DNA of 58,150 nucleotides from an uncultured Coriobacteriia bacterium (GCA_903831865.1 CAIKZH010000003.1:1-58150); one strand, 5' to 3'. Numbered from the stretch's first letter, positions 38,916 to 57,133 are shown. Numbers and translations are program-made. Notes: generated from the letters alone by a model not told the origin.

Positions 38916-39067
38916 CGCCTGACCTGCTGTTTCTCCGGAATCAGGCTCCGGATTCGAGGCCCGAGATGCCCCTTTGGGCACACTCCGGGCACACAACACG
39001 GTGCATCCAGACGACGCTGGACGCCTCTTTGCGCAGTTCAGCGCCTGCATCGGCACAAGCAGCCGCA

Positions 39068-39514
39068 CTACCCGCGTCGGTGTCCCTGCGACCGGGAGTC
39101 TGTGCTCTGCAGGTGCTGCAGGACGCACGATCGACAGATGTCGGGCACACGGTCGCTGCCGTGGTGCCTCCTCAAAGCGTTGCCATACGCCTCCCGCATG
39201 GAGTCGGCGTTCCGGTAGGGGTGCAAGCCGTGACCGGCGTTCCAATCGTGCTGGAGTGCGGCCCATGACGCGTCCGGGTCGGCGGCGCGCCTCTGCTCAA
39301 CAAACTGCACCATCTCAGCGACGAACGGGCGCGGCCGACGATGACGCACGGTTCGGGCGCGGCACTGAGGACTGCGGTTGTCGAAGTGACCCTGACCATC
39401 GAGCGCTCGATCGGGAGCGAAGGGACACGGGCTGACCGATGCGAGCACAGCCGCGGCCTCTTCCAGAGTGCGCTTGAGGCGGTGGGCCTGATCTCGATGC
39501 GTCTCTTCCCTCAT
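39068..39514 (-). CDS. Hypothetical protein
   Basis: ORF with a GGGGAG RBS downstream of the second integrase; no motif recognised. Confidence 0.3.
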   Translation of the reverse strand: MREETHRDQAHRLKRTLEEAAAVLASVSPCPFAPDRALDGQGHFDNRSPQCRARTVRHRRPRPFVAEMVQFVEQRRAADPDASWAALQHDWNAGHGLHPYRNADSMREAYGNALRRHHGSDRVPDICRSCVLQHLQSTDSRSQGHRRG

Positions 39515-39582
39515 TGCTCCCCAGCCGTTCGTCTGCCAACCGTGTCTGCGAAGCCTAGCACCGCGAGAGGGCGCGGCAGGAG

Positions 39583-40770
39583 CTAGGCGCCGCTCGCCGC
39601 CTCTTTGCGCAGCTCAGCGCGTGCAACGGCGCGAGCCTCGGCCAGCTTCGCGACTGCATCCGCCTGCATGCCGGGCAGCAGGTGTCCATACACACTCAGG
39701 GTGAACCCCGCCGATGAGTGACCGAGCCTCTCCTGCACGACCTTCGCCGGCGCCCCCGTCCTGATGAGCTGGCTGGCGTGTGAGTGCCGCAGATCGTGGA
39801 AGCGCACATGCACGCCGACGTGGCGACAGAAGACGTGGTACGCCTGCGAGAACTTCGAGGGAGGCCAGGGATCGCCGGTGTCTCCGGCGCACACAAGGTG
39901 GTTCTCGTGCCATGCCTCCCCCAGCGCCAACCGGCGCTCCTTCTGCCGACGTCGATGCGCTGCCAGCTCTTTGAGCGTGTCGGCATCCAGCGGCAAGGCC
40001 CTCCTGCTCGCGGCCGACTTCGGCTGCCTAAACACGAGCCCGGTGCTGGGCTCCTGAAGCGTCCGACTCACGGTGAGCACGCCGGCCTTGGTGTCGAGAT
40101 CCGACCACCGAAGACCCAGGACCTCTCCACGCCGCAGTCCCGCGTTGGCAGCGAGCAGCACTGCCGCATAGAGGCTCAGGTGCCCGTCTTCCTTGGCCGA
40201 GGCGAGGAGGCGCTCGGTGGCCACCTCATCGATCGCCTTCATCTCGATATGCCGCGCTCTCGGAGCGTCCAGGCGATCACAGGGGTTGACCACGAGGATG
40301 CCGACGCGCACCGCGCGGCCCAGAGCCGCCCGCAACACACGGTGATGAGAGAGCACGGTGCGAGCCGATAGTCCTCCCTCACCCTTGGCCCGGCCACTGG
40401 TGAGCTCCTCGGTGTAGTAGCGCTGGATCCGGGTGGGCGTGAGCTGGTTCAGGCGCACGGAACCGAGCGCCGGGACGAGCCGCTTGTCCACGATCTGCCG
40501 GTAGCCGTCCAGGGTGTAGGGCGCCACGCTGGGTGCGGCGTAGTCCTTCATCCATGTGGCGAGCCACTCGCCCACCGTCATCCGCGACGGCTCGGCGTAG
40601 GAGCCGGTGTCGAGCCCGTGCAGCAGCGCGGTGAGCGCGGACTGCGCCTCACGCTTGGTGACCGCGTGCACCGTGTGGTAGTCGAAGAGCTGCCGCCCCG
40701 CCTCGTCGCGACCCCGAAAGATCCGGGCCTGCCAGGTGTCGGGCGACTTGCGGCGCAGCAGCCCTCTCAT
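39583..40770 (-). CDS. int: Tyrosine integrase of the second element
   Basis: WQARIFRG, GLRRGEVLGLRWSD, PKSAASRR, RFHDLRHSHAS, ERLGHSS..FTLSVYGH. Confidence 0.93.
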   Translation of the reverse strand: MRGLLRRKSPDTWQARIFRGRDEAGRQLFDYHTVHAVTKREAQSALTALLHGLDTGSYAEPSRMTVGEWLATWMKDYAAPSVAPYTLDGYRQIVDKRLVPALGSVRLNQLTPTRIQRYYTEELTSGRAKGEGGLSARTVLSHHRVLRAALGRAVRVGILVVNPCDRLDAPRARHIEMKAIDEVATERLLASAKEDGHLSLYAAVLLAANAGLRRGEVLGLRWSDLDTKAGVLTVSRTLQEPSTGLVFRQPKSAASRRALPLDADTLKELAAHRRRQKERRLALGEAWHENHLVCAGDTGDPWPPSKFSQAYHVFCRHVGVHVRFHDLRHSHASQLIRTGAPAKVVQERLGHSSAGFTLSVYGHLLPGMQADAVAKLAEARAVARAELRKEAASGA

Positions 40771-41663
40771 GACGTGGCGCCCGCTCCCTCCGAGTTGCCC
40801 GCGTCCTTCTGGCCCCTGCGGTAGATGCGCTGACGACATCTCTCGCTGCACCAGTCCCGACTCGCTCTCGCCCCCGTCGCGTCCCAGGGAAGCCCGCAGC
40901 CCTCGCAGGTGCGGTAGTCGCGGTTGCCGTCGATCGCGAGCGCGAGCTGCAACCACATCGCACCCAGAAGCGAACCGACCCGATAGGTCAGGCGCAGCCC
41001 CGCGCCGTAGGACTTGTTCGTGGCAGCGAGAGCGGGCGTGACATCCGCGTGCTTGAGGCCCTGGTTCACCTCGCTTGCCAGCATCGCCTGCACGATCTCG
41101 CGGTCGCTGCTGCTGGCGTCCACGATCAGTAGGCAGGAGTCCATGAGCTCGCCCTTCCAGCACTGCGGCGGGCCATTGGGATAGATGCCGAGCTCATCTC
41201 CCACGCGACGTGTCTCCCACATGCGTTCGATCAGCTCTGAGGGATTGCCGCCTCGCAGCTCGTCCCACATCTCGATGGCGAGCGCCACGCTCTCGCGCGC
41301 CTCGCCCCAGTCATCCTCGTCTCCCGCGTAGCCCTCAGGCAGGCCGCGCGCGGTCTTTGAGATCCTGTCGGGCAGAGGGTCGAGACTCCCATAGGCGCGC
41401 GCGAAGTCCGCGAACGCCTCGGGGGTGTCCTCGATCGCCGCGAAGATCCGGAACAGCGCCGGCTCATCTTTGAGCGGCGCGTAGGACTCGCCCTCGACGC
41501 CCACGAGCGCGACGGAGTCGCCGGCCGGAACAGCAACCTTGCCGTGCTGCGAGGCCCCGTGGTGAAGCGTCTTCCACTCCGCTTCCTGCAGCCGATGCCA
41601 CCGGAATGAGACCAGCTCCGCGATCGCCGGTTCCTGTCGCGCAAGTGTCACAGTATTGCTCAC
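40767..41663 (-). CDS. CGNR zinc-finger regulator-like protein
   Basis: SLLGAMWLQLA...CEGCG...DWCSERCRQRIYR. Confidence 0.7.
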   Translation of the reverse strand: MSNTVTLARQEPAIAELVSFRWHRLQEAEWKTLHHGASQHGKVAVPAGDSVALVGVEGESYAPLKDEPALFRIFAAIEDTPEAFADFARAYGSLDPLPDRISKTARGLPEGYAGDEDDWGEARESVALAIEMWDELRGGNPSELIERMWETRRVGDELGIYPNGPPQCWKGELMDSCLLIVDASSSDREIVQAMLASEVNQGLKHADVTPALAATNKSYGAGLRLTYRVGSLLGAMWLQLALAIDGNRDYRTCEGCGLPWDATGARASRDWCSERCRQRIYRRGQKDAGNSEGAGATS

Positions 41664-41746
41664 CTCATACTGTTGTTGTGTCCGTCGAGCGCATCATACA
41701 CTGGACGTGGCCTAGGCGAGAAGTCAAATGAGGAAAGGAAGTCGCG

Positions 41747-41962
41747 ATGCTCCGGCTCGAAAGGGAAAGGGTGCGTGCGGGACTGAGCCGCTCGGCACTC
41801 GCGCGTCTCGCTCTGATGCACTCGGCCACGGTCGGACAGATCGAGAACGGCTACATCGGGCGCCCCTACCCCGTGCAGCTCGCCAAGCTCGCGAGTGCGC
41901 TCATGTTCGAAGGTGAGCCGGCAGATCTGCTGGACCAGGTGCGCGCAGATGACGACGAGTAG
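41747..41962 (+). CDS. XRE HTH protein
   Basis: ERVRAGLSRSALARLA.....VGQIENG; GAAAGGA RBS. Confidence 0.8.
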   Translation: MLRLERERVRAGLSRSALARLALMHSATVGQIENGYIGRPYPVQLAKLASALMFEGEPADLLDQVRADDDE

Positions 41963-42179
41963 CGCACCGAAGCTCGAGGATCTGCCTGACGTGATCCCCG
42001 TAAAGACGGTAGCCGCCTTCCTCGGGTGCGCGGAGAACACCTGCTACGCCGCGATACGGGCCGGCGCGCTGCCGGCCGTGAGACTCGGCCGTCGGCTGCT
42101 CGTGCCGAAGGCGAGCCTGATGCGCTTCCTTCACGGCACAACGCACACCGAGTCCACGATCGACACACAAGGCCGATGA
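41949..42179 (+). CDS. Excisionase/AlpA-like HTH_17 protein
   Basis: LPDVIPVKTVAAFLG...YAAIRAGALPAVRLGRRLLVPK. Confidence 0.85.
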   Translation: MTTSSAPKLEDLPDVIPVKTVAAFLGCAENTCYAAIRAGALPAVRLGRRLLVPKASLMRFLHGTTHTESTIDTQGR

Positions 42180-42186: not shown

Positions 42187-43020
42187 ATGAAGCTCTCGGA
42201 CCGCATGCTTCGAGCCGACGTGTTCACCGACGGTCGCCTGATCCGCGTCTCGCCGGGTGCGCGGCTGCTGGCCATGGTGCTCGATCCGGTTGCTGAGGCC
42301 ACGGGAGTGGTTCGCCGGGACCCCGACGAGATCCGCAGCAGCGCGGCGCTGTTCCTGGCTGACGAGGAGGGCATGCCCCCAACCGCGGAGCAGATCGAGA
42401 AGTGGGTCGAGGAGCTCGTGGCCCGTGGCTGGGCGCTGGCCTATGAAGTCGGGTCCATGCGACTGCTCTACCTGCGGGGATTCGGCGCCCGTCAGAAGGG
42501 CGCCAACGTCTGCATAGGAGTGAGCCAGACCACCGGGGAGATCGAGCAACATCTGCCGACGCCGCCGTGCGTGACACTCGTCCCCCACCATGAGAAGACG
42601 AGGGACAAAGCGGGACACGAGGTGGAGCTGCGGCTTCGCAAGATGCTGCCCCGCCACTGCCAGGACGCGGGTGCCTGCCCGTGTGAGAGGTTCACCAACC
42701 CTTCGCCTACCCACCCCGAACAAGTAAGTAGAGGTAATGGGATTGAACTTGACCTGAGGGCATTTGAAATCCAACCAGATGAAGATGTGGATGGTCATCT
42801 CAGTGAAGGGGAGCGCGAGGGGGAGCTCGACGCGGAGCTTGCGAGACTCTCGGCCGAGTTCGGTCCCGAGATCGCGACGCAGGCGCTCTTCAAGGAACAG
42901 CTCACCTCGAGGAAGTGCGACCCTCCCAGAGCTGTGAGCGCAGCCATGGTTCGAGTGCGATGTGAGGCGCTGGTGCAGCAGGACATAGAAGCAAGGGCGC
43001 ACGGAGAAGGCTTCGGGTGA
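42187..43020 (+). CDS. Phage-type replication initiator-like protein
   Basis: RMLRADVFTD.RL..VSPGARLL...D wHTH-type N-terminus; acidic low-complexity linker. Confidence 0.6.
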   Translation: MKLSDRMLRADVFTDGRLIRVSPGARLLAMVLDPVAEATGVVRRDPDEIRSSAALFLADEEGMPPTAEQIEKWVEELVARGWALAYEVGSMRLLYLRGFGARQKGANVCIGVSQTTGEIEQHLPTPPCVTLVPHHEKTRDKAGHEVELRLRKMLPRHCQDAGACPCERFTNPSPTHPEQVSRGNGIELDLRAFEIQPDEDVDGHLSEGEREGELDAELARLSAEFGPEIATQALFKEQLTSRKCDPPRAVSAAMVRVRCEALVQQDIEARAHGEGFG

Positions 43021-43208
43021 GCGCGTCGGGCTGCGGTCGCCGGCTCAAGGGGCACCTCTTCCCCGACGGGGCGCGGCGGGAGTGCGATCACGTCGTCGCG
43101 CTCTCGGATGGCGGGTCGAACGCCGGGGAGAACCTGCGCTGCCGTTGCCTGGCCTGCCACTATCCCAAAACCGCGAAGGATCGCGGGGTCCGGGGGCAGG
43201 ACAGGTGA
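43017..43208 (+). CDS. Minimal HNH endonuclease, homologous to the prophage HNH
   Basis: CGRRLKGHLFPDG..RECDHVVALSDGGSN..ENLRCRCLACH. Confidence 0.75.
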   Translation: MSASGCGRRLKGHLFPDGARRECDHVVALSDGGSNAGENLRCRCLACHYPKTAKDRGVRGQDR

Positions 43209-43439
43209 GACTCGTTGACGGCGGAGACTGTGAGGCCCATGGTCCGGACATCACCGGCCCCCTGGGGCCGCCGACCTTCTCGTCCGCCGCACGCCGCCGC
43301 GGGCACGCAGGCGCCTCACGAAGCGAGCAGTCGTATCATTTGCTTGCACCGAGTGCTTGTGACCTGCCTCGCGCAGGTCCGCGCGATCCTTGCTAGGCGT
43401 CGTGGGCCGACTTCCTTTCCGGATGCCTGGGGGTATCGG

Positions 43440-44936
43440 ATGGACATGAGATCTGAGCGTCGGGCGCTCGACAAGCTGTACAAGCGCCGAGACCGGTATG
43501 ACATTCCCGATTGGCAGCGCGACGAAGTCTGGTCGGTCGACAAGAAGCGTCGACTCATAGACAGCATCCTTCGCGGCTGGAAGCTGCCGAAGTTCTACTT
43601 CCAGAAGACCCACGACAACCCCGATGAGTTCGACGTCGTTGACGGCCAGCAACGCCTGACAGCGATTTGGGAGTTCCTTGATGGGGAGTTCTCGCTGTCG
43701 GCGGAATCGGCCACTGAGTTCGGCGGCGAGCGTTATGAAGACCTCCAGGAGGACGTCTCGGACGCGTTCGACGACTACGAGATCGAGTACGACGAGATTA
43801 CCAACGCGACGGACGAAGACGTCAAGGAGTTCTTCCAGAGACTCCAGGAGGGTCTGCCCCTGACGAGCAGCGAGAAGCTCAACTCGGTCCACAGCAAACT
43901 CCGCGACTTCTGCGCCAAGGCCGCGAAGGATCCGTTCTTCTCGAAGACGACCGTGATTGCGGACAAGCGCTATGCACACTTTGACATCGTCGCCAAAGTC
44001 ACCGCCCTCGAGATCGAGGGGCTGGACGCGGGTCTTCGCTATGAGGACGTCCGAAAGGTCTTCATCGACAACGCGTCGTTCTCGTCGCAGTCTGCGGCTG
44101 CCAAGCGAGTCAGCGGAGCGATCAAGTTCCTGCGGGAGAACTTCCCTGAATCGTTCAAGCCCTTCCGCAATCGCACGATTGTCCAATCGGTCATCACACT
44201 TGTCTGCCACCTCCGTGAGGCGGGGCTCACGGCAGAGCAAGGCGAGATGCTGAGGGACTTCATCGTGTTCTTCCTGGGTGAGCTCAACAGGCAGGTGGAA
44301 CTCGGACAGAAGGCGACCGATTCGGACTTCTTGGACTTCCAGCGCACGGTCAATGCGAACGTGAAGACTGGTGCCAGAACCCGGCAGACGATCCTGCTGC
44401 GCAAGCTCTTCCAGAGGCATCCTCAGTTCTTCAGCGCCCTGAGCCAGTCGGCAGATCTTGCGGCGGGAGTCAATGACAGCATCGGGAAGCTTGCGACCTC
44501 TGTGCGAGAGTTGGTCGCCGCAAGCAACGACCGATATGCAGCGCGAAATGGCGGCGACCTATTCAAGCCTACGAACAAGACGGCGAGCTCCCTAGCTGGC
44601 CTTGGGGTGCCGGTCACGTCGGTCGAGGAGTACAAGGCATTCATCGACAACCTGTACTTCGTCTTCTGGGAGGGGCCCGGCCAGCGCCTCGATGGCCAGG
44701 TCCCATCTTCGTTCGTCGATGTGAACGACCTGAGGACGATGCTCCAGCACGACGTCGATCACGGCAAGGGCGCCAAGGCTGCCGCAAAGCGCAGACATCT
44801 GGGATCCGTCTTCGCACGGTATGCAGGCGTGTCGTCGCCTGATGCGATAGACCCTGCGGCCTTTCCCGTCGTGCAGGCGAATGTACTTGGCGCCCTCGAG
44901 TCGGACTTGAGCGCGCTTGCCAAGTCGCTCATTTAG
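43440..44936 (+). CDS. DUF262 (GmrSD/ParB-like) protein with HEPN-like C-terminus
   Basis: PDWQRDEVW, LIDSILRG, VVDGQQRLT, FQRLQ.G.PL; C-terminal RTMLQH (Rx4H). Confidence 0.8.
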   Translation: MDMRSERRALDKLYKRRDRYDIPDWQRDEVWSVDKKRRLIDSILRGWKLPKFYFQKTHDNPDEFDVVDGQQRLTAIWEFLDGEFSLSAESATEFGGERYEDLQEDVSDAFDDYEIEYDEITNATDEDVKEFFQRLQEGLPLTSSEKLNSVHSKLRDFCAKAAKDPFFSKTTVIADKRYAHFDIVAKVTALEIEGLDAGLRYEDVRKVFIDNASFSSQSAAAKRVSGAIKFLRENFPESFKPFRNRTIVQSVITLVCHLREAGLTAEQGEMLRDFIVFFLGELNRQVELGQKATDSDFLDFQRTVNANVKTGARTRQTILLRKLFQRHPQFFSALSQSADLAAGVNDSIGKLATSVRELVAASNDRYAARNGGDLFKPTNKTASSLAGLGVPVTSVEEYKAFIDNLYFVFWEGPGQRLDGQVPSSFVDVNDLRTMLQHDVDHGKGAKAAAKRRHLGSVFARYAGVSSPDAIDPAAFPVVQANVLGALESDLSALAKSLI

Positions 44937-45011: not shown

Positions 45012-45941
45012 GTGCAACACACAGGGAGACAGGGGGGCGAAGACTTGGCGAGCACCGCGGGCCTACTGCGGCAGGCGCTCGATGCCGTCACGGACGGACT
45101 TGATAGTCTCATTCGGACCCTGCCCATAAAGGACAATCGCTGGCATGAGCCGGGCATCGTCTATGTCGCCCCGGACTACGCCTGGGGAGACATCGCAGCC
45201 GGCGAGCGCGCCCAACAGCTATCACTCAAGCGCTCCTACGACCTTGTGTCCGAGCGTCTGCGGCTGCTAGTGGCTGGAGCGCCTGAGGAACTAACCCGCC
45301 AGCTTGCGGATGCGGACGTCGCCTTTCGAGTGTGGGTTGAGCTCGACTACTCGAACTGGCACTTGTCGCCCAGCTCTGATTCAAATGTAGAAGCGCTCCG
45401 AGCGGATGCGGCCGCAATCTCAAGAATTCTGGACATCGTTGAACGCCTCGGTGCCGGAGAGACGTTCGCGATTCCGGACACGAATAGCCTGCTGAGGGCG
45501 CCTGACCCTGTCGCCTACCGTGACGTACTTGGGCAGAACGAGTTCACCTTCACTCTCCTGCCGACGGTGCTCGGCGAACTTGATCGGTTGAAGATCGAAC
45601 ACAGGAATCCCGACGTGCGCGACAAGGCCAAAGCCGTGATTGGCCGCATCAAGGGATGGCGCAATCAGGGGACGCTGTCTGCTGGCGTGAAGGTGGATCA
45701 GTCGATTACCGTCCGCGCCCTGCACGCGGAGCCGGACATGAACGACACGCTGTCGTGGCTCGACCCGGCCGTCGACGATGATCGGATCATCGCGGGCGTT
45801 CTCGCAATCCAGGCGGAGCATCCCGGGGCGCGAGCCGTCCTCATAACCGGCGACATCAACCTGATGAACAAGTCGGATGCCGCGCTAGTGGAGACCGCAG
45901 AGGCTCCCCAACGGGCGCGTCCAGCGGACGGCGCAGGCTAG
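45012..45941 (+). CDS. PIN-domain ribonuclease
   Basis: IPDTNSLL, TVLGELDRLK, DDDRII, LITGDINL. Confidence 0.8.
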   Translation: MQHTGRQGGEDLASTAGLLRQALDAVTDGLDSLIRTLPIKDNRWHEPGIVYVAPDYAWGDIAAGERAQQLSLKRSYDLVSERLRLLVAGAPEELTRQLADADVAFRVWVELDYSNWHLSPSSDSNVEALRADAAAISRILDIVERLGAGETFAIPDTNSLLRAPDPVAYRDVLGQNEFTFTLLPTVLGELDRLKIEHRNPDVRDKAKAVIGRIKGWRNQGTLSAGVKVDQSITVRALHAEPDMNDTLSWLDPAVDDDRIIAGVLAIQAEHPGARAVLITGDINLMNKSDAALVETAEAPQRARPADGAG

Positions 45942-46518: not shown

Positions 46519-46547
46519 CTGGGCTCGGCACAGTCTGCGGGAGATCC

Positions 46548-46634: not shown

Positions 46635-46653
46635 GTGCCAAAGGGGGGAGCTG

Positions 46654-47977: not shown

Positions 47978-49627
47978 TCACTTTGAGAGCAGGAATGCAT
48001 CGAGCTCCTTGACCGTGAGTTCGAGTCCGTTTGCGCGAGCGGATTCGTCCGCGGAGGCGAACGCGAGGCAGTGCTCCCAGTAGGACTTGTAAGCGCGCGC
48101 CTTGTCGTACTTGAACAAGGGGGCCGCCAGCGCCTTGGACCGGAAGACCTTCAGCACCGCTTCTGAGTAGGAGTCGTAGATCGGCACGACGGGCTTGTGG
48201 AAGTGCAGGTACTTGGAGACGAACGACTTGGGCGCGTCGCCGGTCTGGCCTTTGGCCAGCGAGTCGCGAATGAGCGTGGTCAGCTGGCCATGGACCGCGA
48301 CGAGAGTCTCGAGATCCGCCACCCGGAGATCGTCCCCGTCCGGCAGACTGGCGATGAGTCCGTCGACCATCGCATGGTTGTGGGCAAGAATCCGCGCGAC
48401 CTCGCGTATCGCGGAACCGGGTCCTGATCGATCCTCCGCAGGGACCAGCGCGTCTATTCGCGTAGCGTAGCCGCGGCCGATGATGGCCACCTTGGCCACC
48501 ACGCCGGCCGTGTCATCGTGCTTGGGATGTCGGCTGCACAACCCGTAGAGTTCATCGTCAAGCACTCCCCAGATCGCCTTCTGCTCGGCAATCACCTCCT
48601 GGCAACCGGTCCAGAACTCCGAATCAGGCATGTTCGTGCTCCTTGTGTCGTTGGCGCGGGTCATCGCGAGCTTGAGATGCGCTGGTGCGGGAGTCGTCGG
48701 CGTCTCGGCGGATGCGACTGCGGTCGGCGTGCTGCGCTCTGCCGCGTCCGACCGCCTGGCCACACTCTCCAGGCATGCGACCCGAGCAGACAGCCGAGGA
48801 ACGGTCTTCGGACCAAGAGGTGTTGCGCCCGTGAAGAAGCCGGAGACCTCACCCCAGATCTCGACCACATCCTCCTCGTAGAACGAGACCTCGTTCGGGA
48901 AGTCGGCAATCACGTCGTCGAAGCCGCCACCTTGCACGATTGTGTTGAGTTGGACCCACGTGCTCCCGTCATCCTCCTCGTGGATGCCGGTCACCTTCCC
49001 GACGACATGGATCCGTGTGCCGGCCAGCCGCTTCGCGTCCTTCTTCAGAACGCGGTACTCGATGTCGCGACAACTCGCGACGAACTCGTCGTCGGTCTCG
49101 ACTCGCTCGACAACGCGGGTATACGAGAGCGACTTGCCGATCGGGTCCGTCACCTCGACTAGCAGGTCATTGGCGCCGATGGCGAGGGGCGCCTCAATGG
49201 AGAAGCCGCCGTCGGAGCCGACGGTCACGGCCTGCTCGCCGATCGTCACACTGGAGGCAGGAGGCGCCTTGCCCACCAGCATCACATCGGCCGCGCTGAC
49301 CTTCTCGAAGGGATCGGGGGCGGTGATCTGCACACTGGGCCGGATCCCGAACAACCGTGCTGCGTCCGCTGCCGGCGCGGCGAACGGACAGAGGAGCTGT
49401 CGGTCGGCGGACTCCATCGGGCACTCCGCCCGCTCGTGCCAGGCGTACCGGATGATGTTCTTGTCACTCACGGCGGATGGCGAGTCGATGTGGCCTAGAG
49501 CCCACTCATGCGTCGGCCACAACTCAAGATCCGCTAGCCACGCCCTCTCAGGGCAGAAGCACTTGTCGGCCGAGCGATACAGGCAGCCCGTCTGGGTCTG
49601 GTTGGGCCATGCGTCCTCGAAGCCCAT
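47978..49627 (-). CDS. Multidomain hypothetical protein (Ig-like, OB-like, C-terminal SKYLHF/PIYDS helical domain)
   Basis: VQITAP...GANDLLVEVTD Ig-like segment; SFVSKYLHFHKPVVPIYDS; internal AAGGAG-ATG at 48631. Confidence 0.55.
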   Translation of the reverse strand: MGFEDAWPNQTQTGCLYRSADKCFCPERAWLADLELWPTHEWALGHIDSPSAVSDKNIIRYAWHERAECPMESADRQLLCPFAAPAADAARLFGIRPSVQITAPDPFEKVSAADVMLVGKAPPASSVTIGEQAVTVGSDGGFSIEAPLAIGANDLLVEVTDPIGKSLSYTRVVERVETDDEFVASCRDIEYRVLKKDAKRLAGTRIHVVGKVTGIHEEDDGSTWVQLNTIVQGGGFDDVIADFPNEVSFYEEDVVEIWGEVSGFFTGATPLGPKTVPRLSARVACLESVARRSDAAERSTPTAVASAETPTTPAPAHLKLAMTRANDTRSTNMPDSEFWTGCQEVIAEQKAIWGVLDDELYGLCSRHPKHDDTAGVVAKVAIIGRGYATRIDALVPAEDRSGPGSAIREVARILAHNHAMVDGLIASLPDGDDLRVADLETLVAVHGQLTTLIRDSLAKGQTGDAPKSFVSKYLHFHKPVVPIYDSYSEAVLKVFRSKALAAPLFKYDKARAYKSYWEHCLAFASADESARANGLELTVKELDAFLLSK

Positions 49628-49929
49628 CAGGCGTCCCGGCTCGGCCTGGCGAACGGGCACGCCTCTTGGGTCGCCCACTTCACGTAGTGCGGGCACTCCC
49701 CGCGATCCCAGTAATACAGAGACGAGTACTCCGTGTCGTGCTGCTCCGATGACGCCGGTACGCCGGGCGGACGGCGCGATCCGAGCGGACTCCACTGCGG
49801 ATGATGACACCGCCGGTCCTCGAGATAGGCGCAGTAGTGGTAGCGCGAGCCTTGACCGCTGTCGCGGTCAAGGAGACCGAGCACTCCGTCAACCGCCGTC
49901 TTCTTCGCGACCATTGATCCCCCCGGCAC
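49627..49929 (-). CDS. Small Cys-rich hypothetical protein
   Basis: Coupled to the downstream gene; several Cys/His residues. Confidence 0.35.
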   Translation of the reverse strand: MPGGSMVAKKTAVDGVLGLLDRDSGQGSRYHYCAYLEDRRCHHPQWSPLGSRRPPGVPASSEQHDTEYSSLYYWDRGECPHYVKWATQEACPFARPSRDA

Positions 49930-49974: not shown

Positions 49975-50068
49975 GGTAAGGGGGCTGCAATCTCTAGCGG
50001 CCTGCCGCGCCGACCCTGCCTGCCAGGCGCCCTTCTCTGCGCCCGAATCTGGGCGTTTCGCGGCAACG
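49975..50068 (+). repeat. Near-complete copy of the prophage cos-like region
   Basis: 50010-50068 matches the reverse complement of 21861-21919 at 57/59 nt. Confidence 0.85.
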
Positions 50069-50183
50069 ATAACTTCTGGCGCGTGTTACGAAACTCGAGA
50101 CTCAGCGCAATCAGATGTGACGAGCCGCAACGACATGGGACGAAGCCGGGGGTCCGGGGTTGCCTGATGCGCCTGTCTCTGAC

Positions 50184-50208
50184 TATCGTGTATCGTCGAT
50201 ATGCGATA
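50184..50208 (+). promoter_or_regulatory. ArsR-type operator palindrome
   Basis: TATCG-TGTATCGTCGATATG-CGATA directly upstream of the arsR-like gene. Confidence 0.6.
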
Positions 50209-50222
50209 GGAGGTCGGAGGCC

Positions 50223-50525
50223 GTGACATACGACGAGATGGCGTGTTTCGCGCGGGCGCTCGCCCACCCCGCGCGGATGAGGATCATCGGGCTGCTCTCC
50301 TACGAGAAGGAGTGCCTGGGCCCGCAGGTCTTCGGCGAGCTGGAGCTTGCGCAGTCCACCGTCTCGGAGCACCTCAGAGTGCTGAAGGAGGCGGGAGTCA
50401 TCGACTCCCGTCCGGTCGGCGCGACCACCGCCTACCGCCTTCTCCCCTGCGTGCTCGAGCGCTACGCCGTGGCCGTCGCCGACATCGTCGAGAGCGCGGA
50501 CACCCACGGCCCGGGCAGGGCGTAG
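50223..50525 (+). CDS. ArsR/SmtB family regulator
   Basis: ALAHPARMRII, LAQSTVSEHLRVLKEAG. Confidence 0.88.
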   Translation: MTYDEMACFARALAHPARMRIIGLLSYEKECLGPQVFGELELAQSTVSEHLRVLKEAGVIDSRPVGATTAYRLLPCVLERYAVAVADIVESADTHGPGRA

Positions 50526-50560: not shown

Positions 50561-50941
50561 ATGAGCGGAATCCCACAAGCACCTCGCTGCGCCTGGATCG
50601 GCTGCGACAACCCACTTCCACCGCCGGCCAGGCGCGGTCGGGCCCGCATCTACTGCTCGGACTCCTGCAGGATGGCGGCCGCGCGGCATCGAAGGATCTC
50701 CGCGCCATACAGGCCGGACATCGCATGGAGCCCGGACGTCGATCCCGCCGAGCTCACGCTGCCCCCGGAGGCCGATTACGATACGCAGGTCGCCCGCGCG
50801 GTGCTCGAGGCCGCGATGATCTCATCGGCCTTCGCGCGCCTGGCCGCCTACGCGCGCCCCGAGCTCGCCGCACCCTCCGAGCGGATGTGCCGCGTCATCC
50901 GCAAGGCGCTCGACAAGGAGTTCCCCGGATGGAACAGATGA
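50561..50941 (+). CDS. Zinc-finger protein, paralogue of prophage gene 21439-21807
   Basis: CAWIGCDNPLPPPARRGRARIYCSDSCR...DTQVAR...FARLA..ARP.LAA...FPG. Confidence 0.75.
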   Translation: MSGIPQAPRCAWIGCDNPLPPPARRGRARIYCSDSCRMAAARHRRISAPYRPDIAWSPDVDPAELTLPPEADYDTQVARAVLEAAMISSAFARLAAYARPELAAPSERMCRVIRKALDKEFPGWNR

Positions 50942-51465
50942 GCGCCGCCGAGCACGTGTCACGCGACGCGACCCGGCAGAATGGCCTTCAGGCCGGTGCA
51001 TTCAGCGCATGGACGCGCTGGACGGACCGGGCCTCTCTGCCGGGCTTGCGGTTCCCCGGCGTCTACGTGATCGCAGCCCCCGAAGTCGACATCACGGCTG
51101 AGCCGTTCTCGTGGCGGGCGGACATCGTCTACGTGGGCATGTCGAACTCGAGGGGCGGAGTCGGCTCGCGGCTCGGGCAGTTCGAGAGCACTCTGCAGGG
51201 CCGCATGGGTCATGGCGGTGCCCAGAGGCTCTACCGCAAGCACGGCGACTGCTCCGGTCTGCCCGCGGGGCTCTTCGTCGCAGTCCGCACCTTCGAGTGC
51301 AGCGTCACATCCGACGACCCGGACGATCTCCGCGCCATGGGGTGCGTCGCGAAGTGCGAGTACGACTGCTTCGCGGAGTTCGCGGAGGCATTCGGCCGAC
51401 TGCCGGAGTTCAACGACAAGGCGCGATCGCCCAAGTACCTGCCCTGGCCACCACCGAAGTCGTGA
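50938..51465 (+). CDS. GIY-YIG-like nuclease
   Basis: PGVYVIA...IVYVGMS...SRL.QF...E...GRLPEFN. Confidence 0.6.
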   Translation: MSAAEHVSRDATRQNGLQAGAFSAWTRWTDRASLPGLRFPGVYVIAAPEVDITAEPFSWRADIVYVGMSNSRGGVGSRLGQFESTLQGRMGHGGAQRLYRKHGDCSGLPAGLFVAVRTFECSVTSDDPDDLRAMGCVAKCEYDCFAEFAEAFGRLPEFNDKARSPKYLPWPPPKS

Positions 51466-51590
51466 GCGAGCTGTCGCTTCGCCTCCGGCTCCGTGGGCGC
51501 GCATGCGGCGCCCTTGTCACTCCGGTCGGCTAGACTCGGCATACGAACGATGCTCGCGCCTGAGACTCAGGCTCGAGGAGGTCGGGCACT

Positions 51591-52211
51591 GTGACACTCC
51601 GAGACCGCATCTTGGCTGCTACTGCTGAGGCTCCCGGCCTGACGGACCGTGAGTTGGCCGACAGACTGCTCGGGCCGTCATCTGCTCCTCAGGGAGTGAA
51701 TCAGGCGGCTCGTGCGCTCGCAGCGGGCGGCGCCTTGAGTCGCTTCCCTCGCGCTGATGGCAAGATCGGCAACTTCCTTCCGGGCGTCCAACCGCAGGCT
51801 CGAAGCAGTGCCTCGGGCACGACCGGCGCAGCCCGCAGCTCCTCGGGCATGAGCGAAGACGAGGTGAAGCGAGCGGTCGCAGATTGGCTGGAAGCCGCCG
51901 GATGGTCGGTCGTGGTCCGCTGGGGGCGTGAGCGCGGCATCGACATCGAGGCCAGGCGTGGCGGCGAGCGCTGGGTCATCGAGGCGAAGGGCTGCGGCTC
52001 GCTGGGCGCGATGCGCGTGAACTACTTCCTGTCCATGCTCGGCGAGACGCTGCAGCGGATGGATGATCCCGGGGCTCACCACAGCATCGCCCTTCCCGAC
52101 ATGCCTCAGTTCCGGGGCCTGTGGTCCCGCTTGCCGCAGCTGGCGAAGACACGCACAGGGATCTCCGCCATCTTCGTCGGAGAAGGTGGCGCGGTTGTCC
52201 ACCTCGACTAG
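51591..52211 (+). CDS. wHTH plus PD-(D/E)XK nuclease
   Basis: LTDRELADRL; SEDEVK...GIDIEA...VIEAKG. Confidence 0.75.
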   Translation: MTLRDRILAATAEAPGLTDRELADRLLGPSSAPQGVNQAARALAAGGALSRFPRADGKIGNFLPGVQPQARSSASGTTGAARSSSGMSEDEVKRAVADWLEAAGWSVVVRWGRERGIDIEARRGGERWVIEAKGCGSLGAMRVNYFLSMLGETLQRMDDPGAHHSIALPDMPQFRGLWSRLPQLAKTRTGISAIFVGEGGAVVHLD

Positions 52212-52265
52212 GGTCGGGTCTGCGATCCCGACTTGGGCGTCTGTTCACAATCCGCGAGGCTGAGG

Positions 52266-52532
52266 ATGTTCTCGAACACGGAAGCGTTCGCGCTGCTGGC
52301 CGTCATGGGCGCGATTGACGAGCAGAGCCGCCGCGTGCACGCCCAGGCGGTCGTGCACGACCTCGGGCTAGACCCTCGCCTCGAACCGTTCATCCCCTTG
52401 CCGCCATCTCGGAAGCGGAAGCTTCGTGTCTACGAGTCGGTGCTCGGTTCGTACCGTGGGTGGTCCGCGCTCCCAGAACCGGCACGGACGCGCACTATCG
52501 AACAACTCGCCCGGGCGCTCAGAGGAGGATGA
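52266..52532 (+). CDS. Small hypothetical protein
   Basis: ORF with a GAGG RBS; no motif recognised. Confidence 0.4.
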   Translation: MFSNTEAFALLAVMGAIDEQSRRVHAQAVVHDLGLDPRLEPFIPLPPSRKRKLRVYESVLGSYRGWSALPEPARTRTIEQLARALRGG

Positions 52533-53052: not shown

Positions 53053-54027
53053 GTGGAATCCATGTTGTTTGTGCGCGCCGGCAACGGCAACGAGCTCGTC
53101 GATGACTTCGTCCGGTCCGGGCTCGTCGCGGTCGGCTGGTCGAAGTTCGGAGACCTATCGTCCGTCAAGTCGGCTGCAGACCTGGAGCGCATGCTCCTTC
53201 GGACCTATCCCGATGGCGTGAACGCATCCGGCCGCCCGGCGAAGCTCTACGCCGAGATAGTCCACTTCGCCCTCGAGGCGAAGCCAGGCGACCTTGTCGT
53301 CACCGCCGATGGCAGGCGTCGCCGGCTGATCGTTGGCATGATCGACGGCCCGTACGAGTTCCGGCCCGAGCAGCCGCTGAGTTCCGGCGGGGAGCCGTAT
53401 CGGCACACCCTGCCGGTCTCCTGGACGTTCGCTGTCGCGAGAGACAAGGAAGGCCCGCAATCGTTCCCCGAGACTCGCCAGAGGAGGAAGACGGCCTTCT
53501 GGTTGGGAAGCGACACCGCATCCGCGATCATGAGCGCGCCGAGGATGTCTCTCGCTGCGCATCCGGAGGCGCCCCCGCGCAAGTCCGCTGCTCCCTACCC
53601 GCAGCCCATGGCGGAAGCGCCAGTTGCCAACGGAGCCGATGCTCTGCAAGCGTGGCTGGACCAGAACGAGCGGCTCGCCGAAGTTCTGCCTTCGGAAGAG
53701 CTGGCGGCAAGGGCCGCGGCAGCGAATCCAAATCCGCGAAGGGTCGAGTCAAACGGCGCCACCTTCGTGCGCGATTCGTTCGTGGCGGCGTTCGCGAAAC
53801 AACTTGCCCGCGGCGTGTGCGACCTGTGCGCACAGCCGGCTCCATTCCACTCGATGAACAGGCGACCCTATCTCGAGTCCCATCACGTGCAGTGGCTGTC
53901 TCGTGACGGCCGCGACGCGCTCGACAACGCCGTGGCTCTCTGCCCCAACTGCCACCGCAGGATGCACGTTCGCGACGAGCAGGCGGACATCGAGAAGCTG
54001 CAGAGGAAGATCGCCGCTCGTCCATGA
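53053..54027 (+). CDS. McrA-like HNH endonuclease with Mrr-associated-type N-terminal domain
   Basis: VRAG...VAVGW...GDLVV; CDLC...YLESHHVQWLS..G.D..DNAVALCPNCHRRMH. Confidence 0.8.
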   Translation: MESMLFVRAGNGNELVDDFVRSGLVAVGWSKFGDLSSVKSAADLERMLLRTYPDGVNASGRPAKLYAEIVHFALEAKPGDLVVTADGRRRRLIVGMIDGPYEFRPEQPLSSGGEPYRHTLPVSWTFAVARDKEGPQSFPETRQRRKTAFWLGSDTASAIMSAPRMSLAAHPEAPPRKSAAPYPQPMAEAPVANGADALQAWLDQNERLAEVLPSEELAARAAAANPNPRRVESNGATFVRDSFVAAFAKQLARGVCDLCAQPAPFHSMNRRPYLESHHVQWLSRDGRDALDNAVALCPNCHRRMHVRDEQADIEKLQRKIAARP

Positions 54028-54030
54028 GCG

Positions 54031-54110
54031 GAGGTGCTCGGGAGAGGCACGTGCCCAGAATGATTCAGCGCCGCGCAGCTGCTCGCGGACCTGAAGGCGC
54101 CGGGGTGAGG
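54031..54110 (+). pseudogene. Remnant of the 3' end of the prophage peptidase gene
   Basis: 54071-54100 is identical to the reverse complement of 28578-28607. Confidence 0.75.
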
Positions 54111-54270: not shown

Positions 54271-55818
54271 GTGGTCGTCAAGCTTGGCCTCTTCAACTTC
54301 AAGTCCATCGCAGATCTCGGGGAGCTAGAGCTACGGCCACTCACAGTGCTGTGCGGTCCAAACGCCTCCGGAAAGAGCTCGGTGCTGCAGAGCCTTCTTA
54401 TGCTGAGCCAGACCTTCGAAGGCCCTGCGGTGGATCGAGCGCCCGTTCTGCTCAACGGGCCGCTGGTTCGCCTCGGTAGCTTCAGAGAAGTGGTGCGCGG
54501 CTACGATCTCCAGCTTCCGGTCACGCTGAAGCTCGAGTTCGATGTCGCGGGGCATAACGTGGAGCACGCTCGCCCTGCTCTGTGGGCGGTGGCGGCGGGG
54601 ACGGCGCTCGAAGATGAGGGCGTGGCGTCCATGTGGGACGTTACTAGCCTTGCGTTTGAGGTCACTCTGGCCGCAGCGGAGCACTCTGGCCCGGCCTGGC
54701 AGCGTTTCCCCTTCGTCAGCAGGCTCGCCACTAGAGCGGCCGGCAGCGACGAAGTCTACTTCGAGATGAGCATCGAGCGCCCGGCGCCGGATCAGGTGGC
54801 AACCATACGCTACACGCTGTCTGGCGACGACGGTCCCCGTCGCAACGAGTTCTCAGCTGACGTGACGCTGCACCGGCTGAAGCCAGACGAGGTCGTCCTA
54901 GCCGAAGACCTCGGGGCGTCCTATGCCTCCCGACGTCTTCGGTTCACATCCCCGTTCATGGTGCGAGGTTCATTCGCGTTCAACTTGCGAGGTTCTGACT
55001 TCGGACAGCGAGACATGGATGCTCGGGCGCTGCGTCTGTCCTGCGCCCTCATCGATGTGATTGCTACGGCGCTCGGTCCAACCCTCAAGTACGTGGGCCC
55101 ACTTCGAGCAGAACCGCAAAGCGACTACCCGGTGACGAGCGATGCTGCCGACATCGGGCCTCGCGGCGAGAACGCCGCTCAGGTACTGGCGCAGGAGTAC
55201 AACAGACCGTGCGACCGGCCCCGGCTGGATTCGGACTCGGACGACGTCGAGCAGAACAACTCCACCGTCCTGGAGGAGTTGCAGCACTGGTTTGACGTGA
55301 TGGAACTGGGCAGGCTGCAGGCCGTCGCGTCGGAGACAGGAGTCGAGCTCACGCTGACGTCGAGCGCGACTGGATCTGTGCCCGTCTCTTTGGCAGGGAC
55401 AGGATTCGGCGTGAGCCAGCTGCTTCCCATCTTGCTGCAGGGGCTCAGGATGCAGCCACAGGACACGCTGCTGCTGGAACAGCCGGAGATACACCTGCAC
55501 CCGAAGCTGCAGATGCAGGTCGCCGACTTCCTGATCAGTCTCGCCAAGATCGATCGCTCAGTCGTCGTCGAGACTCACAGCGACCACGTTGTCAGTCGCG
55601 TCGTCCGTCGGATAGTCGAAGGACAGCTGTCTCCCGAGGATGCCGCTATCTACTTCGCACACAACGACGAGCACGGGACCCGCTTTGAGCGTGTCGAAGT
55701 CGACGACGTGTTCGGCATCGTCAACTGGCCGGAAGGGTTCTTCGACCAGGACGCAGATGAGCAAGAGGCCATTCTCCGTGCCTCGCTCAGGCGCCGAGCC
55801 GACACTGGCCGGAACTGA
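54271..55818 (+). CDS. ABC/AAA ATPase with DUF3696-like C-terminus
   Basis: NFKS, GPNASGKSS, YVGPLR, GFGVSQLLP, LLEQPEIHLHP, VETHSDH, WPEGFFDQ. Confidence 0.9.
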   Translation: MVVKLGLFNFKSIADLGELELRPLTVLCGPNASGKSSVLQSLLMLSQTFEGPAVDRAPVLLNGPLVRLGSFREVVRGYDLQLPVTLKLEFDVAGHNVEHARPALWAVAAGTALEDEGVASMWDVTSLAFEVTLAAAEHSGPAWQRFPFVSRLATRAAGSDEVYFEMSIERPAPDQVATIRYTLSGDDGPRRNEFSADVTLHRLKPDEVVLAEDLGASYASRRLRFTSPFMVRGSFAFNLRGSDFGQRDMDARALRLSCALIDVIATALGPTLKYVGPLRAEPQSDYPVTSDAADIGPRGENAAQVLAQEYNRPCDRPRLDSDSDDVEQNNSTVLEELQHWFDVMELGRLQAVASETGVELTLTSSATGSVPVSLAGTGFGVSQLLPILLQGLRMQPQDTLLLEQPEIHLHPKLQMQVADFLISLAKIDRSVVVETHSDHVVSRVVRRIVEGQLSPEDAAIYFAHNDEHGTRFERVEVDDVFGIVNWPEGFFDQDADEQEAILRASLRRRADTGRN

Positions 55819-55821
55819 CTC

Positions 55822-56739
55822 ATGTCGACAATTCGTGCCGTTCCCGAGCCGTCCGTCTACCACATCACAGCCGAGGACTGGCGCGTTGATGAGAAGCGGG
55901 ACGCCTTCGAGGCGCGGTTCCTCGACATACTCGGCGGTTTGCGCGTTGGGTCAGGTCGCCTTGCATGGTCCGACCGGATTGAAGCGCTCCTTTGGGGAGT
56001 TGACTCGGGGCCAGCCTGGTTCAGGGACAAGGCCGCCTGGAACCAGTTCTACAGCAAGCGGGTCGCGAAGCAGCTGCGCCCGCTTCTGGACAGCGTGCCT
56101 ACGGACGACACGGAAGGGCTTGCGGAGATCGCACCCGACCCGACGGGCCGCCCGGACGAAGAGCCCTACAAGGAGGAGTTCCTGCGGATCTGTGCCAGCT
56201 ACTGCCTGTTGGACGAGGACTTCGTTCTGGCTCTCGGCTTCGACGCGGAGCGCCCGACAAGCGTCCTTGTGCGCCAGCCTGGCTGCGCGGACCGCCAGGT
56301 GCAGACGGTGTCAGAGTACGACGACATTCTCGCGCTGGTGGAAGTGACTGACGATCTGTGGCCCCAGTCGGCCGACGATGGGGAGACGCTGCGGCGCGCG
56401 CTGGGGATCTGGCATCGGCGGCACGCATTCTCGGCCGACGGCTTCATCTACGAGTTCAGCTTCGCTGGGGACTTTCTGCGAGCTCTTTCAAAGGAACGCG
56501 ATGACCGCGCGGGCGTGCTGGATTCCATGGTGCGGCGGTTGACGCAGACGCGACGAGCTGCAGAGGGAGACCGCGCCATCCAAGACGAGGACGCTTCGTG
56601 GGCCGGCCAGACGGTTCGACGCTTCCGTGCCCGAGGGCCGCGCCGCATCCACTACGAGTGCCCGAGTGCCAGAGCGATACGCTTCATCGACTACTACCCG
56701 GAGGGCAAGCACGACGTCGGCCTTCGTGCCAAGGACTGA
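55822..56739 (+). CDS. ATPase partner with putative RelE/ParE-like C-terminal domain
   Basis: FSFAGDFLRAL...RRFRARGPRRIHY...IRFIDYYPEGKHD. Confidence 0.55.
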   Translation: MSTIRAVPEPSVYHITAEDWRVDEKRDAFEARFLDILGGLRVGSGRLAWSDRIEALLWGVDSGPAWFRDKAAWNQFYSKRVAKQLRPLLDSVPTDDTEGLAEIAPDPTGRPDEEPYKEEFLRICASYCLLDEDFVLALGFDAERPTSVLVRQPGCADRQVQTVSEYDDILALVEVTDDLWPQSADDGETLRRALGIWHRRHAFSADGFIYEFSFAGDFLRALSKERDDRAGVLDSMVRRLTQTRRAAEGDRAIQDEDASWAGQTVRRFRARGPRRIHYECPSARAIRFIDYYPEGKHDVGLRAKD

Positions 56740-56966
56740 CACACGACGGCCCTGCTGAGCGACTCAAGGCAGCAGCGTAGAGGAGAGTGTGAAGCTCGCC
56801 CGAGAAGAGGGTTGGTCCCGCAGGGGGTTGACCCTGCTTGGACCCCCACGCATGTCTCGCGACAACGCTCTGGGCAGGCGTATCTTGGCGTATGTGCTCC
56901 AGAGACGCGGTCCGAAGTGGCTTCAGGCGAATCCGCTAGTCATTGTTCGACAGAACCGGGGGAACC

Positions 56967-57133
56967 GTGACGCGGATTGACGAGCTCAACGATCAGGCGC
57001 GCAAGACTCTCGACAAGATCGAGACGAACTTGGAGGCGCACTCAACGTCGATGGCTGCGACAGCGAACGTGGGAATCACTCTCGGGACCGCGCTCGCCGC
57101 TGGGTTGGCCATACTGGCCAAAGACGTCATCCC
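56967..57133 (+). pseudogene. Membrane protein gene truncated by the IS3 element
   Basis: GTG start after GGGGG; hydrophobic segment runs into the IS end. Confidence 0.4.

Follow-up and report, generated by a model that had tools for sequence, protein, structure and literature searches.

Contig C3 of a metagenome-assembled genome (MAG) of an uncultured Coriobacteriia bacterium (G000; 192 contigs, 2.16 Mb, 67.8% G+C), analysed here over its entire length of 58,150 nt (the window), holds a stretch of nuclease-rich genes at positions 38916-57133, directly to the right of a complete prophage, which raises the question of whether this stretch is a satellite that travels in the particles of its neighbour or a chromosomal island with patches of phage DNA in it. 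The original prediction was an actinobacterial phage satellite next to its probable helper. We favour, with a probability of roughly 45%, the reading that these ~18 kb are an integrative, phage-related defence island that occupies a hot spot at tRNA-Arg(CCT) in a tandem arrangement with the prophage, and that its phage-like patches are mostly non-functional or of unproven function. Taken by themselves, its membership in a family of islands and its defence role are highly probable. The main new result is that its five-gene core is that of a conserved family of structural-gene-less islands with variable defence cargo, which is small and previously undescribed.

Many spurious open reading frames (ORFs) are to be expected at this high G+C content, so genes were called by third-position G+C (GC3) and then checked against family libraries, by which 23 island ORFs were scanned (19 with Pfam, two more with PHROG and a further two with Pfam). 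The core begins on the minus strand with a tyrosine integrase gene (39583 to about 40770; Phage_integrase 4e-24, Phage_int_SAM_3 1.8e-11), the longest ORF of which extends to 41163, with a likely start near 40770, as 40767 marks the end of the upstream gene, which is read in another frame. This upstream gene (40767-41663, minus strand) encodes a 298-aa protein with a C-terminal CGNR-like zinc finger (CxxC...CSxxC), a candidate regulator with a counterpart in three related islands; its structure neighbours in the Atlas include a CGNR zinc-finger cluster (TM 0.56), which serves as a lead only. Divergent from it across an 83-bp gap lies the gene for a Cro/CI-type helix-turn-helix (HTH) protein (41747-41962, plus strand; phrog_3 transcriptional repressor, 2.3e-6), 48-49% identical to the HTH proteins of the related islands, and a minus-strand ORF that overlaps this conserved gene (41660-42040) is probably spurious. 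It is followed on the plus strand by the gene for an Xis-like or HTH DNA-binding protein (41895-42179; phrog_1864, phrog_6401 and phrog_66, with excisionase and transcriptional regulator annotations), which probably has a later start and is 36% identical to its relatives and 33% to the phage ORF 36891-37115, and by rep (42187-43020, plus strand), encoding a phage-type replication initiation protein (phrog_1408, 5.4e-8) that is 45-52% identical to Rep of the three related islands. No Pfam domain, and no primase or helicase domain, was found in Rep, a PDB profile search with it gave nothing significant (E 0.4), and its Atlas neighbours, again a lead only, are mostly viral and of DnaD/Phg_2220-like kinds. 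Searches for tandem repeats (TRF) and inverted repeats returned no iterons or origin near rep.

Directly after rep stands a 63-aa ORF (HNH63; 43017-43208, plus strand), which was assessed by BLAST only and matches the HNH genes of the prophage and of C89; this contig, like C38, C156, C172, C188 and C189 below, belongs to the same MAG as C3. HNH63 begins inside the first CxxC, without its first Cys, and is therefore a truncated 3' fragment in which just the final ~57 codons of an HNH gene from a phage are kept. The predicted layout, with an integrase and a zinc-finger regulator divergent from HTH, xis, rep and HNH, is thus present, with the exception of the core HNH, which is only this fragment.

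The evidence for an island family comes from a search for the same core in other genomes, a check proposed with the original prediction, which found the five genes syntenic in three other Coriobacteriia MAGs (G003, with locus L025, and the loci L026 and L027). The order of int, the gene for a 288-289-aa protein, a divergent HTH gene, an Xis-like gene and rep is identical in all of them (3/3), and the core adjoins tRNA-Pro(GGG) in G003 and L027, no tRNA being in view in L026. The island on C3 likewise has the same five genes in the same order beside a tRNA 3' end, here a tRNA-Arg 3' fragment, and its 298-aa protein has a C-terminal RTCExCG...CSxxC finger in common with the 288-289-aa proteins (BLASTP E 3e-4). 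In G003, a complete genome, a 46-bp direct repeat of the tRNA end stands at both sides of the island, 18.3 kb apart. L026 and L027 have 5.9 kb in common at 95% identity and then diverge, and G003 shares 3.9 kb at 75%. The cargo of these relatives comprises TIR, DUF4238, NOV_C/sacsin-like, DUF4062, IS21, AbiEi/AbiEii, HEPN-AbiV, Mrr, type ISP restriction-modification (RM) and DnaJ genes, and no virion genes were found among the 20 cargo ORFs scanned in them. Rep itself is rare, with five matches at E<=1e-5 among 5.8 billion proteins (all five metagenomic), an occurrence in three of the 15 family genomes (counting G000 and one weak match), three loci in a scan of one genome for each of 185,579 species (one of them the G003 locus again), and no relative in IMG/VR by single sequence or by alignment. 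The records with Rep relatives are titled uncultured Coriobacteriia, and the designation actinobacterial is right at the level of the phylum. As the same core occurs without virion genes in three other genomes, it marks a real island family and not a decayed sibling of the prophage. A candidate sharing of short sequences between the G003 island and a resident prophage was dropped, since G003 has no PF03354 TerL and the matches were IS21 copies and an int-like fragment.

The predicted lack of capsid, terminase and tail genes was borne out, as the 23 island ORFs scanned contain no capsid, portal, terminase or tail families, and no structural-gene remnants of the neighbouring phage were detected in the island by tblastx. 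Moreover, we found no virion, lysis or conjugation genes in the island, and no Pfam match to an FtsK/TraB-type translocase, a relaxase or a type IV secretion system (T4SS) in the ORFs scanned, which sets it apart from actinomycete integrative and conjugative elements (AICEs), integrative and conjugative elements (ICEs) and mobilisable elements.

On its left, the island abuts the 3' 48 nt of a tRNA-Arg(CCT) gene (38868-38915, plus strand), which end in CCA and constitute the attachment (att) repeat; they are 100% identical to the locus on C188 (10741-10800), where the intact tRNA spans 10713-10788, and this identity runs on to 38927. A third copy of the repeat, on C156 (20769-20858), has the same flank and a degraded fragment of int behind it, and a 52-nt remnant of an integrase 3' end on C3 (39009-39060), 83% identical to 39585-39636 at the 3' end of the island int, has the same flank on C156. 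The att copies on C188, C3 and C156, together with the int remnants, identify the tRNA-Arg locus as an accretion site with tandem integrations, and the whole locus is a defence hot spot. No whole tRNA and no known RNA family was found in the window (ARAGORN, Rfam). On the right, an IS3-family transposase gene (57134-58150, plus strand; rve 1.3e-19, HTH_21; 82% to C189) ends the assembly, and not necessarily the island. Of the bounds originally given, 38916 holds as the base directly after the tRNA-Arg fragment, whereas 57133 is the last base before IS3 and not a demonstrated island end. A right-hand att candidate lies on C156, a separate contig, and overlaps between the ends of C188, C3 and C156 gave no order, all three running into IS3 copies.

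The expected defence and nuclease cargo is present as well. A DUF262/GmrSD_N protein (43215-44936, plus strand; GmrSD_N 4.3e-23) is NsnA-like, that is, Menshen sensor-like (PADLOC NsnA 2.1e-34), and is followed by a PIN_4 domain protein (45012-45941, plus strand; PIN_4 9e-13; no PADLOC match). Further to the right lie a 324-aa HNH nuclease that resembles type IV methyl-directed restriction enzymes (53053-54027, plus strand; HNH 6.6e-9, PADLOC mREase_IV 5.2e-21, PDC-S02 1.3e-17) and an NsnB-like ABC-type ATPase (AAA_15/AAA_21; AAA_15 4e-24, PADLOC NsnB 2.2e-67) with a 305-aa partner (together 54271-56739, plus strand), the latter without matches in library searches. NsnA and NsnB are parts of Menshen (nsnA-nsnB-nsnC; PMC12065111, partial text), and we do not use this name here because 9 kb lie between the NsnA-like gene and the NsnB-like one and PADLOC gave no NsnC match. 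The two genes are separated by the phage-like segment, and they may represent one system that was split or two systems with no relation to each other. A derivation of the nuclease at 53053-54027 from the neighbour's HNH protein was rejected, as BLAST found no match between the two.

Under the reading of a defence island, Int and the Xis-like protein would excise and integrate the element at the tRNA 3' end, the divergent HTH and zinc-finger pair would control the switch between excision and integration, Rep would replicate the excised circle, and the cargo would protect the host. The island would be unable to move between cells alone, and repeated recombination of this family member with the family of cos phages that resides in its genome would have left the phage-like patches.

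To weigh these patches, the neighbour has to be considered. It is a complete siphovirus-type prophage (~3.1-38.8 kb, minus strand) left of the island, with PHROG matches for endolysin, collagen-like fibre, tail proteins, tape measure, minor tail, HK97-type major head protein, ClpP-type protease and portal, with early genes that include a DNA methylase and a 246-aa HNH protein (30872-31612), and with a tyrosine integrase gene on the plus strand (37553-38803). Its packaging region (19383-21954, minus strand; Terminase_4, TerL_ATPase, TerL_nuclease) consists of a cos-like sequence (21861-21954), the gene of a small zinc-finger protein (ZnF; a 122-aa ORF at 21439-21807, just upstream of TerS and in a different frame), TerS (~20882-21460) and TerL (19383-20885), and the cos-like sequence is non-coding and lies 50 nt upstream of the ZnF-TerS-TerL genes. 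The sole TerL, portal and HK97 capsid genes of the assembly (one each; 96% complete) are all in this prophage, and no second virion module was found anywhere in the assembly by a further TerL, portal or HK97 capsid gene; the second TerS of the genome is on C38, and PF05119 was found only in the phage and on C38. For the refuting condition named with the original prediction, structural genes just to the right, where the contig stops in IS3, this absence of a further virion set elsewhere in the assembly is the available, indirect outcome. The prophage TerL is ~25% identical to the TerLs of phiC31, phi105, Nocardia NBR1 and Streptomyces phages, and in those records TerL begins 0.6-1.4 kb from base 1. 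phiC31 and phi105 are cos phages, and their records begin at the cohesive end. No left att of the prophage was seen, as 38780-39100 has no repeat in 1-3500 beyond 10-nt chance matches.

The island holds two cos-like copies. Copy 1 (49975-50068, plus strand) is of the neighbour's type, with 88.3% identity over 94 nt to phage 21954-21861 (E 4.5e-28); aligned from the 13-mer core (21907-21919 in the phage copy), the two agree at 13/13 in the core, at 45/50 in the next, TerS-proximal 50 nt, and then at 23/60. Copy 2 (47487-47540, plus strand) contains the 13-mer core and shares 94.5% identity over 55 nt with C38 4047-4100, a stretch close upstream of the ZnF-TerS gene on that contig; the two island copies have the same orientation and are 2.4 kb apart. 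Altogether G000 has five such copies, against 0 for a reversed control pattern, with an invariant 13-mer and a left part common to all, and with TerS-side right parts of two types: type A occurs in the phage, in island copy 1 and on C156, type B in island copy 2 and on C38. There is one right-half type per TerS gene of the genome, and the island holds one of each. No cos-like copies with extended similarity were found in the other 14 family genomes; a 15-mer core (<=1 mismatch) occurs in 9 of the 15, and the 12 loci outside G000 have at most 27 nt of extended similarity and encode no homologue of a window protein. A motif scan of metagenomes returned four contigs, two being C38 itself and two being variants that match the C38 ZnF/terS region, in one of which (L031) the ZnF and TerS ORFs can be read, while the pattern was absent from IMG/VR and gave no DNA match in isolated phages. 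RNA or DNA structure in the cos-like copies was not apparent (z-scores -0.10, -1.41 and +1.02), and around them there were 0 promoter-like sites, with terminator-like sites at chance level. A late-promoter reading was weakened because two of the five copies (island copy 2 and C156) face convergent genes. From its position, its conservation and its link to TerS, the element is best read as cos, and we refer to it as a candidate site.

Other patches accompany the two copies. To the right of copy 1 stands an intact, full-length homologue of the phage's terS-adjacent ZnF (50561-50941, plus strand; 57% aa identity over 117 residues to phage 21439-21807), with a coding-type GC3 of 0.83, and at the DNA level 50587-50928 matches phage 21775-21452 with 66% over 343 nt, well above chance. 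C38 encodes the ZnF domain and TerS as one in-frame fusion, whereas the phage and L031 have them as adjacent ORFs, and this fusion ties ZnF to packaging. Among 5.8 billion proteins the only ZnF homologue was the window's own protein. Complex prediction for the phage TerS with the island ZnF, run without controls, scored 0.00 and speaks neither for nor against binding. Upstream of copy 2 lie a Zn-ribbon gene (46603-46929) and a phrog_6723 gene (46926-47402), which together form a phage cassette at 46603-47402 on the plus strand (phrog_4852 1.3e-7 and phrog_6723 2.4e-41) and are 52% and 63% identical in aa to a pair on C156 that likewise precedes a cos-like copy; neither ZnF nor the phrog_6723 protein had a tblastn match in isolated phages, and the latter had no relative in IMG/VR. 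HNH63 is 88% (aa) and 85% (nt) identical to the end of the C89 HNH gene and 59% (aa) to the phage HNH at 30872-31612, and at the DNA level 43043-43172 matches phage 31034-30905 with 79% over 130 nt, well above chance. Furthermore, an 80-nt relic of a phage gene 3' end (54031-54110, plus strand), 82.5% identical to phage 28647-28569 inside the ORF 28549-28989, carries an in-frame stop. The claim that the island carries the neighbour's cos-like sequence, HNH and ZnF stands for the first (two copies, one of the neighbour's type) and the last, but the HNH is truncated and nearer to C89.

These patches have different nearest relatives (phage, C89, C38 and C156), and some are debris, namely the HNH fragment, the 80-nt relic with its stop and the C156 cos-like copy followed by the first codons of ZnF. 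Copies outside the island also lie among defence genes that have no int-Rep core, on C156 with an Eco57I-like RM system and ARPP-1 and on C38 with a CHAT protease. The C156 copy, with ZnF start codons and then the Eco57I-like RM system behind it, indicates that cos-like remnants persist as junk in defence-rich DNA.

Several points weigh against the defence-island reading. The relatives' zinc-finger proteins are only 22-23% identical to the 298-aa protein, and the family rests on only four genomes and five metagenomic Rep proteins. No right att repeat (attR) was found in the window, which makes it an assumption that the stretch is one island. Nor does the reading provide a vehicle for transfer. 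In addition, the 45/50 identity of the TerS-proximal segment, set against 66% nucleotide identity in the ZnF gene, and the intactness of ZnF fit a site kept by selection, and thereby favour the strongest rival.

This rival, which we consider a serious possibility though short of probable, is a true cos-type satellite: on induction of a helper, either the neighbour or a C38-type relative, the island would excise, replicate by Rep and be packaged at copy 1, where the helper's TerS and TerL, with HNH, would cut, while the island ZnF may bias recognition towards the island and the cargo would pay the host, following the logic of the cos-type Staphylococcus aureus pathogenicity islands (cos SaPIs). 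It accounts well for a non-coding 94-nt match exactly where a cos site is expected, 50 nt upstream of ZnF-TerS-TerL, for the 13-mer present in all five copies, against 0 occurrences of the reversed control pattern, and for a TerS-proximal stretch at 45/50 beside a gene product at 57% aa identity. The pairing of two right-half types with the two TerS genes, both types being in the island, the in-frame ZnF-TerS fusion on C38, and a TerL related at ~25% to those of phiC31, phi105 and NBR1, whose records start 0.6-1.4 kb from TerL, point the same way. The core modules look phage-like, and a phage-like core without conjugation genes implies that the island needs a vehicle. On the other side, cos cleavage, excision and packaging all remain predictions, no terS, capsid-size or interference gene was found, and two copies in the same orientation 2.4 kb apart are awkward if one terminase cuts both. 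Other phage-like patches are debris, and none of the three related islands has, at the protein level, a homologue of the ZnF, Zn-ribbon, phrog_6723 or HNH63 genes. As conservation of cos regions is in any case seen between related phages, a relic of recent origin would have the same appearance, and with the IS3 and the missing attR the integrity of the island is an assumption.

The closest precedent for such a satellite is that of the cos SaPIs SaPIbov4 and SaPIbov5 of Staphylococcus aureus, which also have int, regulators, replication genes, a helper cos region (a candidate one here) and no terS of their own, along with conserved genes whose function is obscure and a piece of a gene related to packaging (PMC5052747, partial text). 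The island differs from them in that it belongs to another phylum, has no sequence homology to them and no Ccm-like capsid homologue, encodes a Rep without primase or helicase, holds two cos-like copies of two types, carries defence instead of virulence cargo, and is known from sequence alone.

Phage-inducible chromosomal islands (PICIs), for which SatelliteFinder uses five core components, are att-specific, 10-20 kb long and without virion genes (PMC10085698, partial text). The island resembles them in that an integrase, a putative regulation module and a gene for replication stand in the conserved order, the integrase component being present (Phage_integrase 4e-24). For the PICI regulators alpA, merR or stl, the island offers an HTH protein matching phrog_3 and an Xis-like protein matching phrog_66, which are PHROG profiles and not those of SatelliteFinder. 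It differs by the absence of terS, of a capsid-morphogenesis gene and of a primase-replicase, its Rep matching only phrog_1408. With two to three of the five components it is at best 'Type C', which is an ambiguous class according to the partial text of PMC10085698. The absence of the usual primase/terS signature of PICIs, anticipated in the original prediction, was confirmed, no primase domain and no TerS being found in the island.

The PICMIs of Vibrionaceae (minimalist chromosomal islands inducible by phages) are similar in their minimal hijacking equipment, their defence cargo and the lack of capsid-remodelling or packaging genes (PMC10803314, partial text). They are ~6 kb long, lie beside fis, encode int, alpA and a primase, and are packaged by the headful mechanism as concatemers by virulent phages (PMC10803314, partial text). 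The island, at a tRNA-Arg site, with at least 18 kb and no primase, is not a PICMI. The proposed resemblance to PICIs and PICMIs thus holds for a structural-gene-less element with an int/regulator/Rep core, defence cargo and a phage cos-like sequence with ZnF, and fails for the features by which PICMIs are recognised.

Among actinobacterial elements, MiniFlayer and MulchRoom of Streptomyces (PMC10690885, partial text) and the EPIPs of Mycolicibacterium (PMC12822802) belong like the island to the phylum Actinomycetota and obtain virion parts from a helper (PMC10690885, partial text; PMC12822802). They encode encapsidation or virion genes (terS, capsid, adaptor and, in EPIPs, a tape measure), as far as the partial text goes for the Streptomyces satellites, and were found as particles, whereas the island has no such genes and has been seen solely in the form of chromosomal DNA. 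P4-like satellite hot spots and integrative defence islands likewise combine a mobile core with a fast-changing anti-phage load (PMC9122126 and PMC11551731, partial texts), but their core genes are unrelated. No satellite of Coriobacteriia came up in the literature covered, in which the papers listed as touching on both the class and phage satellites concern gut viromes by their titles and the beginnings of their abstracts, and the supplements of PMC10085698 may list actinobacterial satellites.

An unlikely alternative is a composite, in which an int-Rep island ends near 46 kb and the cos-bearing ~46-57 kb are the remains of another tandem element or a product of strain-mixture assembly. The tRNA-Arg accretion site with its three att copies (C188, C3, C156) and int remnants would lend itself to such stacking, the NsnA-like and NsnB-like genes are split by the phage-like segment, and IS3 copies break all three contigs of a MAG in 192 pieces. 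Against this stand the absence of an att repeat or second integrase inside 39.6-57.1 kb and the continuity of GC and GC3 across the island region.

Also quite improbable is an extension of the satellite reading in which the island would be 'bilingual', the first satellite of a Coriobacteriia phage, with two signals that combine one core with TerS-side halves for the neighbour's and for a C38-type TerS, so that either helper could package it and ZnF would act as a cos-specificity adaptor. A decayed sibling of the prophage with deleted virion and lysis genes, named originally as the main alternative, can account for the phage-like order of int, regulators, rep, cos and ZnF, for the gene relics and for homologues of the neighbour's ZnF, HNH and Xis-like proteins, but has become very improbable, because the core is without homology to the early region of the neighbour (28% for int, 33% for the Xis-like protein, no match for Rep) and is syntenic with islands without virion genes in three genomes, once as an 18.3-kb repeat-bounded unit, no structural pseudogenes appear in the 23 ORFs or by tblastx against the phage, and the patches differ in their nearest relatives.

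The island has further features. Downstream of int lies a 148-aa ORF (39068-39514, minus strand; GC3 0.76) without a Pfam match at E<=1. The interval from one cos-like copy to the other holds genes (47625-49810, minus strand) for a 90-aa protein with a triple zinc knuckle and for a protein of 610 aa, the latter with a Glucodextran_B match (3.9e-8). The repeats here are coding: an apparent 3 x 69-nt tandem repeat at 47625-47897 (minus strand) translates into three CxxC...C...H knuckles, with an AAGGAGG site upstream, and zinc-finger matches of the 90-aa protein in Pfam are sub-threshold only. An ArsR-type HTH regulator (50160-50525, plus strand; HTH_5 6e-9, HTH_20 1.5e-8) precedes ZnF, and three ORFs called from the GC3 frame plot follow it (50938-52532, plus strand), of which that of 206 aa is weakly Mrr_cat-like (E 0.0013, under the curated cut-off), those of 175 and 99 aa being without library matches. 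The 175-aa ORF (50938-51465) was considered as a TerS and rejected, being dissimilar to the TerS of the phage and without a match in Pfam, PHROG or PDB, and an impression by eye of a GIY-YIG-like protein was dropped as no tool supported it. A dispersed element of ~85 nt (46546-46635) overlaps the start of the Zn-ribbon gene and also occurs on C172, C59, C89 and L031; its spacing of ~720 nt on C172 and L031 suggests tandem Zn-ribbon/phrog_6723 cassettes upstream of cos.

Elsewhere in the genome, C38 encodes an orphan TerS-ZnF fusion (3003-3953, minus strand) with a cos-like copy upstream and no TerL nearby, its neighbours being genes for a polysaccharide deacetylase and a CHAT/caspase-like protease. 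C156 (1-21100) is a parallel locus with the Zn-ribbon and phrog_6723 genes, a cos-like copy and then only the first ZnF codons, and it continues with the Eco57I-like RM system, an AAA ATPase, a 1034-aa protein of unknown kind, ARPP-1, the tRNA-Arg fragment and the degraded int. On C188, a ResIII helicase gene (3070-5637) stands just downstream of the intact tRNA-Arg. C89 (1-12179) carries a second early-gene module resembling that of the neighbour, with HNH (65% aa), a 301-aa protein (70% aa) and int. Within the prophage, a block of lower G+C (0.60-0.62) at 22276-27396, between the cos-like sequence and the early genes, encodes metabolic-type proteins (an SCP-x-type thiolase, a 3-hydroxyacyl-CoA dehydrogenase, an HGSNAT-like acyltransferase and a 509-aa unknown) and may be either cargo that the phage has next to cos or the result of a join in the assembly. 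Inside the gene for the collagen-like tail fibre lies a 207-nt direct repeat with 81% identity (5279-5722), and restriction-type genes flank the lysis end of the prophage (1-3000; MmeI-like methylase pieces and a RAMA-domain protein).

In practice, these islands are of use for annotating defence islands in MAGs and for picking sites where new defence genes can be sought, one example being the 305-aa protein paired with the NsnB-like ATPase. Should the cos-like site be functional, cos-mimicking satellites would extend to an uncultured freshwater and soil class of actinobacteria, and an integrase, Xis, Rep, cos and a small zinc-finger protein would be a minimal recipe to hijack an HNH/cos siphovirus and deliver defence. 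If, in addition, the island addresses two kinds of TerS, the cos-like signals in defence islands (C156, C38) would make the defence arsenal of the genome transducible by a single resident phage. Even if the site is non-functional, there is a small family of tRNA-targeting Coriobacteriia defence islands with a conserved core of 3.9 kb and fast-changing cargo, and the tRNA-Arg locus shows a prophage, islands and debris piling up and exchanging pieces.

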